A program made the position numbers and the translations under genes. Below, piece after piece: positions 40,014 to 43,199 of a stretch of DNA of 64,000 nt (positions within the stretch are counted from its first letter, which is position 1; each line of letters opens with the position of its first letter). The notes under the pieces are model-generated. The model saw nothing but the letters and a program-made list of their open reading frames with translations, was not told where the DNA came from and ran no database searches. The stretch is taken from assembly GCF_056712565.1 (NCBI RefSeq), contig NZ_CM160072.1; one strand, given 5' to 3'.

Positions 40014-41616
40014 ACTGTTGCAAAAGCTGACCCGTAGCTGTTTTGCCGACCGGGATGCACTGGATGTGGCGCGAACACAGGCGGCGCTGTGGCAGACATG
40101 GCTGCTGCCGGTGACGGCAGACACGCCGGTCGGGGAAGACCCCGGCTACCACGACGATTTCCTGCGTATACGCGACGAAATGAACAAACTTTCCGGCACA
40201 GATACCGGCCTTATCTGCCAGCTTGCCGAATCCCTGCTGCTGACGCAGGCCAAAGACGTGCGCATCGCCACTTACTACATCTGGGCGCGACTGCACCGCG
40301 ACGGTGAGCGCGGACTGGCGGAAGGACTGGCGCTGCTGACCGGACTGGTGGAACGCTTCGGTACGCAACTGCTGCCCTCGCGTCCGGCCAGCCGGAAAAT
40401 GGCGCTGGAGTGGCTGGCAGGGGAAAAGATGCTCGACAGCCTTGCCCGCTACCCGGAAGTGGCAAAAGAGGATTTTGCGAACATTGTTGCCGCTCTTAAT
40501 CAACTGACGGTTTCCTTCACTGCATGGCCCGAAGACCAGCATTCCCCCTCCCTGATGCCACTGATTAACGCGCTGGAATCACGTCTGGCGCAGTCGGGCG
40601 GGATGAACGCGGTGGTGCCGCAAAACAGCAGCAGCGTTACTGCACCGTCATCCCCGGTGGATGCGCCACAGGTACAGACCATCACCTCCGGGCGTGACCT
40701 GCTCGACCAGGCGAAAGTGCTGGCCCGTTATCTGAACGAACAGCCGCAGGGCTGGCTTTCGGCGCACCGGCTGATGAAAACCCTGCGCTGGGACACGGTG
40801 CATGAACTGCCGCCGGATGTGGACGGCAAAACCCGGCTGGCCCCGCCGCGCACCGAGTCACGCAACCAGCTTAAGCGGCTGTATGCCCAGCAGAACTGGA
40901 CGGAACTGCTGGAGCAGGCCGACCTGATGTTCAGCACCGGCGTCAGCCATTTCTGGCTGGATATCCAGTGGTATCTGCATCAGGCGCTGACTAAGGCGGG
41001 CGTACCGTGGGACAGGTGGACAGCTGTTATCCGTCAGGACCTGGCGTTACTGCTGGAACGCCTGCCAGGGCTGGAAAATCTGGCATGGAACGACGGCACG
41101 CCGTTCGCCGATGAGGTGACGCGCAACTGGATAGCGCAGCAGGTCATGATGCGGGAAGACGGCGCATGGCTTGCGGGGAAAGCCGCTGTACCGACAGACG
41201 ACGCCACAAATGACGTACTGGCGCTGGAGCCGGAAGCACTGGCGATGGCAGACAGTCAGGGCGTGGAAGCGGCGCTGGGCTGGATACAGACCCGTCCGGG
41301 CATCACCACGGCACGACAGCGCCTGTTATTGCGACTGCTGATGGCGCGGGTGGCGGAACAGTACGGTAAAAACGAGATGGCGCTCCTGCTGCTGGAAGAA
41401 CTGGATACCGCCGCACAGGGAATAACGCTGACGCAGTGGGAGCCAGAACTGCTGTTTGAAGTAAAAGCCCGGCAACTGAAACTGCTGCGTCTGCGGGCGC
41501 ACCGCTATGCGGATAAAGCCCTGCTGAACCGAAAAATGGAAATCCTGCTGGGAACGCTGGTGGCAATCGATCCGGCACGGGCAGCGGTACTGTGTGATAC
41601 GCAACATAAGGACTGA
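40006..41616 (+). CDS. tssA: T6SS protein TssA (ImpA_N domain)
   Basis: MSELLQKLTRSCFADRDALDVARTQAALWQTWLLPVTADTPVGEDPGYHDDFLRIRDEM, ImpA N-terminal signature; overlaps the tssM stop. Confidence 0.85.
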   Translation: MSELLQKLTRSCFADRDALDVARTQAALWQTWLLPVTADTPVGEDPGYHDDFLRIRDEMNKLSGTDTGLICQLAESLLLTQAKDVRIATYYIWARLHRDGERGLAEGLALLTGLVERFGTQLLPSRPASRKMALEWLAGEKMLDSLARYPEVAKEDFANIVAALNQLTVSFTAWPEDQHSPSLMPLINALESRLAQSGGMNAVVPQNSSSVTAPSSPVDAPQVQTITSGRDLLDQAKVLARYLNEQPQGWLSAHRLMKTLRWDTVHELPPDVDGKTRLAPPRTESRNQLKRLYAQQNWTELLEQADLMFSTGVSHFWLDIQWYLHQALTKAGVPWDRWTAVIRQDLALLLERLPGLENLAWNDGTPFADEVTRNWIAQQVMMREDGAWLAGKAAVPTDDATNDVLALEPEALAMADSQGVEAALGWIQTRPGITTARQRLLLRLLMARVAEQYGKNEMALLLLEELDTAAQGITLTQWEPELLFEVKARQLKLLRLRAHRYADKALLNRKMEILLGTLVAIDPARAAVLCDTQHKD

Positions 41617-43199
41617 TGGCAATGGGAACAGGCTACTTTCTGGTCAGGGGGGACAAAACCACCTGCGGCGGGAAGATTATTGAAGGCGCGGACGACCATA
41701 CGATCATGGGTATCCCACAGGCACGGGATATGGATCGGGTCACCTGCGGCAGATATCCGGGAATGTTTATTATTGTGGGCGGCGTGCCGGAAACGGATAT
41801 TCACGGCAGGCTGATGGCGGGATCTCTGGACAACCAGAGCAGTTGCCCGTGCAAGGCGCGGTTTATTGCGTCAATGATGGATGATACCTATGAAACGGAT
41901 GACGGGGGAAGCGAGCCGGAACAACATGCGCAGTCGGCGAGGAAAAATCTGACTTCCGGTAATCCAGATAAAAAATACAGTCATCAGATAAAACTTCAAC
42001 ATGGCGAAAATAATGTTAGTGTACAGGACATACCTTATGTCTTTATCCTAAATAATAACATGTCTCTCAGTGGCAAGACTAATCAGGATGGCGAGACTGA
42101 GAGAATATATACAGATACTGCTCAAAAGGTAATTGCACTTACAGGAAAACTGGCTGATTCCTGGCTGAAAAGAGGGAAAAATTTTGGTTCATTAAAAGAA
42201 ATTGACAATAGAAAGATCGAATTAACAACTGAAGAGAATGAACCTGTAAAATATGTCAACTGGATTAATAGGCGTGATTATATTGTGATTGTGGCGGCCA
42301 GAACAGCCGTAACAAACTGGATAGGAATGGAGGACTCAAAAGGAAATCAGTATCGATTTATAAATTGTGGATTAGAACAATTACAACAGTTTCCTCCAGC
42401 CAGTAAACAGGATTCCAGTTCGCAGCGAATTATGGTGGTTTTTTCGCTTGGGTATACGCAAAAAGATATTGATAGAATTAATGATTATACTAAAGCGCAC
42501 GATGGAAGAATTATCTATGTCAAGAATAAGGATGAATTAGTTTCATTCCTGAATCAACGCAAAGAAAAAGGAAGAGTGATTAAGGAACTGGTTATTCTGT
42601 GCCACGGTGTTATTAAAACAGCTTCATATCATTATCATCATGAAGACAAGGATATTGAAAAAAATGGAATGTTTAAACATGAAGATATTGCAGCAGTTCA
42701 CGAGTCAGTTTTTGATTATGATGCCCATGTGACAACATATGCCTGTCGGGCCGGTATCTCAGATGGTGATAAAGATTTTTCCGGGAAGGATGATGCAGGG
42801 CAAAAGGACAGCCCGGCACAGAAAATGGCTGATAACTGGGATGTCATGGTTAAAGCGTTTGAGATGAGATCGGACTACAGTCTGGCTTATGGGACAGGCA
42901 AGGAAATTAAAGAAGCTCAGGAATATGGTAGTGTGGTAGAAAAATATAAAAAAGATATAGATATGTATAATAAAGAAAAAGCAAAGGGGAATACTGAAGT
43001 TTCCCCTCCAGTGAAACCAGAGGGATATGATGAGAAATCAAAACGCCATGCAGATGTTACTACCAGAGACAAAAATGAAAAGTCTGGCGGAGGACCAATA
43101 GCTCCTAATGGTGCATGGCATATGCCAAGAACAGGGGATTCGCCGAAAGGGCTGAAAAGCGGGTTACAGGATTATCAGCCTGAGGAGTGGGTTCAATAA
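41616..43199 (+). CDS. PAAR-domain protein fused to an approx. 400-aa C-terminal domain of unknown function (putative toxin)
   Basis: 527 aa; N-terminus RGDKTTCGGKIIEG...RVTCGRYPG...SSCPCKARFIA is PAAR-like and GC-rich; AT-rich from about nt 41960; no motif I can assign. Confidence 0.6.
   Translation: MAMGTGYFLVRGDKTTCGGKIIEGADDHTIMGIPQARDMDRVTCGRYPGMFIIVGGVPETDIHGRLMAGSLDNQSSCPCKARFIASMMDDTYETDDGGSEPEQHAQSARKNLTSGNPDKKYSHQIKLQHGENNVSVQDIPYVFILNNNMSLSGKTNQDGETERIYTDTAQKVIALTGKLADSWLKRGKNFGSLKEIDNRKIELTTEENEPVKYVNWINRRDYIVIVAARTAVTNWIGMEDSKGNQYRFINCGLEQLQQFPPASKQDSSSQRIMVVFSLGYTQKDIDRINDYTKAHDGRIIYVKNKDELVSFLNQRKEKGRVIKELVILCHGVIKTASYHYHHEDKDIEKNGMFKHEDIAAVHESVFDYDAHVTTYACRAGISDGDKDFSGKDDAGQKDSPAQKMADNWDVMVKAFEMRSDYSLAYGTGKEIKEAQEYGSVVEKYKKDIDMYNKEKAKGNTEVSPPVKPEGYDEKSKRHADVTTRDKNEKSGGGPIAPNGAWHMPRTGDSPKGLKSGLQDYQPEEWVQ

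Follow-up and report, generated by a model that had tools for sequence, protein, structure and literature searches.

We examine a candidate effector gene of a type VI secretion system (T6SS) in a window of 64,000 nucleotides from NCBI RefSeq assembly GCF_056712565.1 (contig NZ_CM160072.1). The gene lies between tssA and tssF, encodes a PAAR spike-tip module joined to a long AT-rich tail, and is followed at once by a small gene for a predicted membrane-anchored protein. A preliminary description of this DNA had recognized the PAAR fusion and proposed an effector-immunity arrangement, and it left the tail domain unassigned. Our analysis indicates that the pair is a polymorphic PAAR effector with a caspase-like toxin domain, from a family that has been catalogued computationally before, and a dedicated partner gene. 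The features of the locus are listed below, all on the plus strand, with effector residues counted from ATG 41616 (the form of 527 amino acids, aa).

39979..41616 (RefSeq start 40006), plus strand: tssA, left flank (TIGR03362, E 5.5e-143; annotation of the near-identical ATCC 11775 locus)
41616..43199, plus strand: specialized PAAR effector gene; 527 aa if translated from ATG 41616, 525 aa if from the probable start at ATG 41622
41616..41891, plus strand: GC-rich PAAR spike-tip module, residues 1-92 (Pfam PF05488 and allele comparison)
41892..41972, plus strand: Gly/Ser/acidic linker, residues 93-119, left recombination junction (break in GC and in GC at third codon positions, GC3)
41973..42260, plus strand: transthyretin (TTR)/CnaB-like beta-sandwich, residues ~120-215 (AlphaFold2 model, Foldseek)
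42267..43196, plus strand: toxin domain, residues ~218-527, made up of an alpha/beta core, a hairpin, and a tail
Residues 218-425 of the toxin domain: predicted clan CD alpha/beta core, with the His330 codon at 42603-42605 and the Cys377 codon at 42744-42746
Residues 428-489 of the toxin domain: highly charged long helical hairpin
Residues 490-527 of the toxin domain: conserved C-terminal tail, GGPIxPxGAWHxPxTGxxPxGL
43199..43828, plus strand: probable cognate immunity gene, 209 aa, one transmembrane segment at residues ~8-26
43882..44066, plus strand: remnant of a P0087-type PAAR toxin gene (its 3' end, interrupted by an in-frame stop), marking where the swapped cassette ends on the right
44067..44528 (RefSeq start 44085), plus strand: ORF3, probable orphan multi-transmembrane DUF1240-like gene, 153 aa
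44898..46658, plus strand: tssF, right flank (TIGR03359, E 4.7e-174)

The family matches of the two flanking genes bear out the placement between tssA and tssF given in the preliminary description, which had also started the open reading frame (ORF) on the tssA stop codon. The overlap of the tssA TGA with the effector's first ATG is indeed present (TGATGG at 41614-41619), but the probable start is the second ATG, at 41622, which is the start in the RefSeq annotation and in most homologues. An AAGGA Shine-Dalgarno sequence at 41608-41612 stands 9 nt from ATG 41622 and 3 nt from ATG 41616, and because of this better spacing we consider 41622 the more likely start. An existing database entry, 100% identical to the effector, comprises 483 member sequences, and 158 of 5426 complete Escherichia coli genomes (2.9%, at a cover of at least 80%) contain the whole module, so the effector gene is genuine and conserved, not an ORF that arose by chance; some 1000 further complete E. 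coli genomes match the query only in part. The E. coli copies of the module are at least 99% identical to one another, and their carriers belong to extraintestinal and avian pathogenic (ExPEC/APEC) lineages, including O1/O2:K1 APEC strains, UM146, and the E. coli type strain. In ATCC 11775 the T6SS-1 cluster lies beside three tRNA-Met genes and is complete, with tssBC, tssKL, an OmpA-family gene, hcp, tssH, vgrG, a lipase gene, a small PAAR gene, tssM, and tssA, followed by the effector gene, tssFGJE, and a gene with a VasL domain. The annotation of that genome names the effector only as a “PAAR domain-containing protein” and adds two hypothetical proteins. The effector locus thus lies within or beside a T6SS cluster, as is characteristic of specialized PAAR effectors.

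The tail, which had been described as impossible to assign to a known toxin family by eye, can be assigned from its predicted structure. We built an AlphaFold2 model of residues 116-527 on an alignment of 24 homologues and obtained a confident structure in three parts, with a mean predicted local distance difference test (pLDDT) score of 92.6 and a predicted template-modeling score (pTM) of 0.91; the AlphaFold and Foldseek check that had been suggested for this region therefore yields a TTR-like module and a DUF4347-like Cys/His domain of clan CD. The beta-sandwich matches transthyretin and CnaB2 in the Protein Data Bank (PDB) by Foldseek (probability 1.0, target template-modeling score 0.4-0.56), and it is missing from the Rhs-fused and short forms of the family. 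Modules of this TTR-like kind often serve as connectors in VgrG and PAAR proteins. For the toxin domain, the closest solved structure is Tce1 (PA0256, DUF4347; PDB 9qpe), and the core also matches asparaginyl ligase (structural match score 10.7), GPI transamidase (10.5), gingipains (~10), CHAT (9.7), metacaspases (9.0), caspase-9 (8.4), clostripain, and the cysteine protease domains (CPDs) of MARTX (8.0) and TcdA (7.7). On this model, the alpha/beta core has the clan CD (caspase-hemoglobinase) fold, and the toxin domain does not have the papain-like (NlpC/P60) fold. The conserved C-terminal tail is retained in distant Rhs-fused members and is thus part of the toxin domain. Sequence searches alone were less informative: PF05488 is the sole Pfam match in the effector, a single-sequence search of the PDB with the effector returned only chance matches to TRPV3, and the NCBIfam and PADLOC libraries gave no match for the effector tail, the immunity protein, or ORF3.

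The candidate catalytic residues fall where this fold would place them. Both motifs singled out in the preliminary description are present, LVILCHG at residues 325-331 and TTYACRAG at residues 372-379, and they hold His330 and Cys377, respectively. His330-Gly331 directly follows the model strand at residues 205-213 and Cys377-Arg378 follows the strand at 251-259 (numbering of the model); the order of His before Cys and the spacing of 47 residues match clan CD enzymes. To measure conservation, 147 representatives of clusters at 50% identity were aligned to the family profile. His330 and Cys377 are both present in all 130 representatives that cover both positions, and conservation at the individual sites is as follows.

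His330-Gly331: kept in 132 of 132 representatives
Cys377-Arg378: kept in 132 of 133
Ser399: kept in 131 of 132
Gln402: kept in 123 of 132
Arg418: kept in 131 of 134
Tyr421: kept in 130 of 134

The earlier and admittedly speculative idea of a Cys/His hydrolase is in this way given a concrete form, a predicted clan CD fold with an invariant His and an invariant Cys, and we infer that His330 and Cys377 are equivalent to the known clan CD dyad. More speculatively, Arg378, Ser399, Gln402, Arg418, and Tyr421 could form a pocket for an acidic or carboxylate P1 group; equally speculatively, the two invariant arginines beside the dyad could bind a carboxylate that belongs either to an acidic P1 residue or to a peptidoglycan stem peptide.

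The gene directly downstream has the properties expected of an immunity gene. The effector's TAA stop overlaps the ATG at 43199 (TAATG), homologues that are 33-75% identical lie directly 3' of the toxin in Phytobacter, Salmonella, Yersinia, and Enterobacter and also in Klebsiella, Photorhabdus, and Acinetobacter, and toxin-partner synteny extends over eight genera. Among E. coli genomes, the gene occurs in exactly the 158 that carry the toxin (158/158). The effector-immunity arrangement proposed in the preliminary description is, on these sequence grounds, convincing, and the characterization of the product as a small exported protein also stands, as a single N-terminal hydrophobic segment that is predicted to act as an anchor. 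That the partner is strictly linked to the toxin, evolves fast, and has one N-terminal membrane anchor is directly supported. Every homologue has one such segment, with a charge of +1 to +5 on its N-terminal flank and a neutral or acidic C-terminal flank; by the positive-inside rule, this charged N-flank predicts a cytoplasmic N-terminus and a periplasmic soluble domain. The partners of more distant toxins are not obviously homologous, and they too are anchored (locus L008) or lipoprotein-like (L009, L015, L016), so that each of the 12 loci examined has an exported or membrane-anchored partner. This 12/12 pattern is our main argument for a periplasmic site of action.

The start of the immunity gene deserves attention, since the RefSeq start at 43274 (185 aa) drops the conserved N-terminal anchor. 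The GGAGGA that precedes 43274, although it resembles a strong Shine-Dalgarno sequence, encodes the conserved Gly-Gly of the anchor, and the short form is also called in Enterobacter, Klebsiella, and Photorhabdus annotations; an additional anchorless isoform from the internal start is possible. None of six homologues of the immunity protein has a Pfam match, and hence none matches Imm36, and a word-indexed search with the protein returned only close E. coli and Phytobacter-like copies, without names. When the tail and the periplasmic domain of the immunity protein were folded as one Gly-Ser-linked chain on a paired alignment of 8 rows, the model reached a pLDDT of 71.8 and a pTM of 0.61, with a pLDDT of 45-80 in the immunity part. 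Yersinia mollaretii (L002, 9317-10605) has two tandem, diverged immunity copies of 208 and 209 aa, which are 45% and 33% identical to the E. coli protein; tandem duplication of immunity genes is often seen at polymorphic toxin loci. A further conserved gene of ~250 aa lies 3' of the immunity gene in Yersinia (L002, 10958-11704) and Klebsiella (L012, 6935-7732) and is split in Enterobacter (L003, 9950-10737). With 14% identity to the immunity protein, its product is not a relative of it, and no Pfam match is recorded.

Searching 1.84 billion representatives with a profile at a threshold of E <= 0.001, we recovered 374 relatives of the toxin domain in five architectures. PAAR fusions occur in E. 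coli, Phytobacter, and Salmonella (from protein searches) and in Klebsiella, Pseudomonas, and Photobacterium (from AlphaFold DB matches), and one protein (P0041) is a fusion of the toxin domain to VgrG. In Yersinia, Enterobacter, Photorhabdus, and Klebsiella, stand-alone forms of ~440 aa lie inside T6SS clusters in which VgrG comes first, followed by a DUF4123 adaptor, the toxin, and the partner, and short forms of ~310-330 aa consist of the toxin domain alone, still accompanied by an immunity gene. The domain also forms the C-terminus of Rhs/YD-repeat proteins of up to 3864 aa, in which it starts right after a DPxG motif; overall it is present in many Enterobacterales and in Rhs proteins of Bacteroidetes. 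Such a range of architectures marks the domain as a polymorphic-toxin payload for delivery by T6SS. An M23 peptidoglycan peptidase, which would have hinted at the cell wall as the target, was considered in a distant fusion partner (P0150) and rejected, as Pfam gave only an EF-hand there. In Acinetobacter gerneri (L006, 5692-6951), the first part of the TTR-like region is an ORF of its own (102 aa) that abuts a toxin gene of 316 aa, an arrangement that reflects either a frameshift or a natural division of the protein in two; no T6SS genes lie within 6 kb of this toxin locus.

The relation of the family to named domains is partial. DUF4347 (PF14252) matches 7 of 30 diverse family members at E <= 0.001 and 18 of 30 at E <= 0.1, and homologues that are 42-45% identical to the query have a precomputed PF14252 hit or are named “DUF4347 domain-containing protein”; PF14252 does not match the query effector itself even at E <= 10. 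Searches of the PDB by sequence (phmmer, family profiles A3 and A6, and the distant member P0157) found neither Tce1 nor any peptidase, with Tce1 absent even at E <= 10. Given these partial PF14252 matches and the failure of sequence profiles to reach Tce1, the family is a divergent DUF4347-like branch, tied to Tce1 by (partly predicted) structure only.

The PAAR head has a different history from the tail. PF05488 (PAAR_motif) matches residues 12-68 (E 1.1e-8) within the GC-rich module of residues 1-92, in agreement with the GC-rich PAAR N-terminus of the preliminary description, and the sharp turn to AT-rich sequence that it had placed near 41960 is seen in two measures: GC falls from 0.55-0.65 to 0.33-0.39 across ~41900-42100 and stays low to ~44900, and GC3 falls from 0.55-0.75 to 0.1-0.5 at codons 101-121. 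Residues 1 to ~92 (in some cases to ~115) are nearly unchanged in proteins of other E. coli, Salmonella, Citrobacter, and related bacteria, and the alleles that share this PAAR (P0061, P0071, P0072, P0073, P0074, P0077) diverge after residue ~92-115, a point that sits in the Gly/Ser/acidic linker and coincides with the composition break. The same PAAR carries as alternative C-termini S-type pyocin and colicin E3-type domains, Ntox44, a DUF2235 lipase, a domain containing HExxH, a 305-aa form, and a membrane-rich form. On the right side, DNA homology to the haplotype of strain 1002W03, which has a different PAAR allele, resumes at ~43930 and is nearly perfect from ~44160. Between the immunity gene and ORF3 lie 60 codons of which 32 (53%) are identical to the C-terminus of P0087 (E 4e-21), with one in-frame stop. 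The existence of other alleles of the same PAAR with different toxins, together with this downstream relic and an orphan DUF1240 gene, directly supports, at the level of sequence, the recombination of an AT-rich cassette of ~2 kb (~41950-43880, comprising the toxin tail and the immunity gene) onto a conserved PAAR. C-terminal domain swapping onto a resident PAAR, which had been suggested from composition within the ORF, is thus upheld by allele comparison, the composition break, and the toxin relic.

ORF3 is probably the orphan immunity gene of the displaced P0087-type toxin and not a partner of the present effector, a reading that follows from the P0087 relic upstream of it, from the gene order in Enterobacter, where the slot between tssA and tssF holds an intact P0087 toxin gene and, after it, a PF06836 (DUF1240) gene, and from its presence in 282 E. 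coli genomes versus 158 for the effector-immunity pair. It is annotated as DUF1240 in some genomes. We considered ORF3 as a second immunity protein and rejected this, since it co-occurs with other PAAR alleles, an unrelated gene takes its place in Salmonella, and it is preceded by the relic of another toxin. Between ORF3 and tssF, a 370-bp non-coding stretch (44529-44897) with a GC content of 0.27-0.30 is almost identical across E. coli haplotypes with different PAAR toxins, and it may be a promoter or silencing region for tssFGJE.

Elsewhere in the same cluster, a second effector region lies upstream at 29459-35512, which we read by colinearity with ATCC 11775.

29459-31939: VgrG (colinearity with ATCC 11775)
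31959-33125: esterase/lipase family protein (colinearity with ATCC 11775)
33107-34788: three short ORFs, the last annotated “Tli4 family”, possibly a fragmented immunity gene
35252-35512: small stand-alone PAAR (colinearity with ATCC 11775)

Three tandem tRNA-Met (CAT) genes at 19350-19646 lie just upstream of tssB, and the T6SS-1 cluster is consistent with an island inserted at a tRNA-Met locus.

Several known systems resemble the present one in part. The T6SS effectors Tae1-4 and TseH (NlpC/P60-CHAP) cleave peptidoglycan with a Cys-His pair, act in the periplasm, and have periplasmic immunity proteins. The E. coli effector has a comparable Cys/His pair, a predicted periplasmic site of action, and a predicted periplasmic immunity domain, but those enzymes are papain-like, whereas its own fold is predicted to be that of clan CD. 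Known clan CD peptidases (legumain C13, GPI transamidase, gingipains C25, caspases and metacaspases C14, clostripain C11, CHAT, C80) have no detectable sequence homology to the effector, and its predicted site of action, the bacterial periplasm, sets it apart from them. Zhang, de Souza, Anantharaman, Iyer, and Aravind (2012) predicted that polymorphic toxins, T6SS ones among them, carry C-terminal “Tox-Caspase” domains, with Imm36 as immunity (PMC3482391); the likeness is that a caspase-like H/C domain, which they predicted to act as a toxin, stands last in PAAR, Rhs, or T6SS-linked polymorphic toxins, and the difference is that the partner of our effector has no Pfam match where Imm36 is predicted for theirs. 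T6EC1 (Geller et al. 2024), another allele of this enterobacterial slot between tssA and tssF, is likewise a specialized PAAR, shown in a T6SS operon with TssM and TssA. Its immunity protein is membrane-anchored and periplasmic, and the logic is shared: from the anchor of the immunity protein one predicts that the target lies in the periplasm, a prediction that was verified in the case of T6EC1 (PMC11148199). T6EC1 carries a colicin M-like DUF3289 toxin with a different fold and presumed chemistry.

The nearest structural relatives, Tce1 (PA0256) and Tce2 (PA2372) of the Pseudomonas aeruginosa H3-T6SS, differ in delivery and in genetic context. Paracuellos et al. (Nat Microbiol 2026) solved the Hcp3-Tce1 structure and termed both proteins putative cysteine proteases; they describe no immunity gene and no marked toxicity in E. 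coli, and in yeast they showed Tce2 to be toxic in a manner that depends on its Cys (PMC13323088). Howard et al. (mBio 2021), who showed that PA0256 (DUF4347) binds Hcp3, did report toxicity in E. coli (PMC8262886). Tce1 and Tce2 are cargo of the Hcp lumen, whereas the E. coli effector is fused to PAAR and has relatives that travel as VgrG/DUF4123 cargo or are fused to VgrG or Rhs. Tce1 and Tce2 have no known immunity gene, whereas the effector has a conserved anchored one, and the compartment predicted for the effector is also different. Tce1 shares 11% identity with the effector and no link at the level of hidden Markov models, and the effector adds the TTR-like region, the helical hairpin, and the conserved tail.

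From the architecture, fold, conservation, linkage, and cassette exchange, each of which is observed or directly supported above, we propose an account in which secretion, enzymatic activity, compartment, and substrate are inferred. The gene would encode a PAAR-fused antibacterial T6SS-1 effector with a clan CD toxin that acts in the periplasm and its own immunity protein, a reading to which we assign a probability of roughly 65%. The PAAR module would cap VgrG and be fired with the spike into a neighboring Gram-negative cell. In the recipient periplasm, the toxin domain would act as a cysteine endopeptidase, or as a related amidase or transpeptidase, on an envelope substrate. This could be a protein of the periplasm or membrane that is essential to the cell, or the peptide of peptidoglycan. 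Sister cells would be protected by the immunity protein, which would sit in the inner membrane by its anchor, expose its soluble domain to the periplasm, and bind and block the toxin there.

The periplasmic reading has to be weighed against the chance that the toxin acts in the bacterial cytoplasm or in eukaryotic host cells, like Tce2 or Tce1, with the membrane partner protecting in some other way or having another role. Tce1 is, after all, the closest solved structure, the Cys-dependent toxicity of Tce2 in yeast comes with an H3-T6SS tied to anti-eukaryotic activity (PMC13323088), the carriers of the E. coli module are ExPEC/APEC lineages, and the internal start could yield an anchorless immunity isoform. 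We nevertheless consider this unlikely, given that having a partner gene of its own, inherited together with it, marks an effector as antibacterial, that all 12 partners are anchored or lipoprotein-like with a topology toward the periplasm, and that Tce1 and Tce2 are Hcp cargo without immunity genes, Tce1 having no detectable sequence similarity to the effector. An autoprocessing role, in which the clan CD domain would resemble the CPDs of MARTX, TcdA, and TcdB and free another toxic part after delivery, is quite improbable: the domain is the most C-terminal one, followed only by the charged hairpin and the tail, which belong to it even in Rhs fusions; Rhs fusions have their own release mechanism and carry the clan CD domain as their sole payload; and in the stand-alone forms of ~310-330 aa this domain alone still comes with an immunity gene.

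Two further possibilities receive little weight from us. The effector gene might be decaying or a silent passenger, for the module is present in 2.9% of complete E. coli genomes, and identity of at least 99% fits clonal spread as well as it fits selection. The ORF is intact, however, with stop/start overlaps with tssA and the immunity gene, all family-invariant residues are kept, and the near-identical ATCC 11775 locus has an intact set of T6SS-1 core genes around it, which leaves this only a slim chance. The other possibility, that the domain is no peptidase but a kinase or another nucleotide-binding Rossmann-like enzyme, seems slimmer still. In the T6SS C-terminal domain catalogue of Geller et al. 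(2024), cluster 116, which lies outside the four pairs tested there, is labeled “kinase, 7ji4_A” and contains proteins named “DUF4347 domain-containing protein” and “Pyocin large subunit” (PMC11148199). This cluster is probably the present toxin domain, as “Pyocin large subunit” is also the name of the effector's 100%-identical AlphaFold DB entry. The published structure-based label for what is probably the same cluster is put in question by our analysis.

Known clan CD enzymes are proteases that work inside cells or act on a host, or they are domains by which large toxins process themselves. To our knowledge, the periplasm-acting Cys-His effectors of T6SS have so far been papain-like peptidoglycan amidases, and in the literature we searched, we found no experimental work on this protein or on any clan CD toxin of a T6SS that acts in the periplasm. 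The architecture of the pair is ordinary; what is likely to be new among periplasm-acting T6SS toxins is the enzyme class and the target. We suggest tentatively, at somewhat less than even odds, that this is the first clan CD interbacterial toxin to kill from the periplasm, cleaving or transpeptidating an envelope target that no known T6SS effector hits (for example, a particular essential protein of the periplasm or membrane, or a peptide bond in peptidoglycan that is recognized by way of a carboxylate-binding pocket), neutralized by a new family of immunity proteins anchored in the inner membrane, and belonging to a module common to Enterobacterales, Acinetobacter, and the Rhs toxins of Bacteroidetes. 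The domain boundaries, the positions of His330 and Cys377, the long immunity start, and the predicted compartment provide handles for experiments. If the proposal is true, interbacterial antagonism would gain an enzyme class not seen in it before and probably an envelope target that is new as well. As the domain is spread over many Enterobacterales and the Rhs proteins of Bacteroidetes, one characterization would annotate hundreds of genes now called “hypothetical”.

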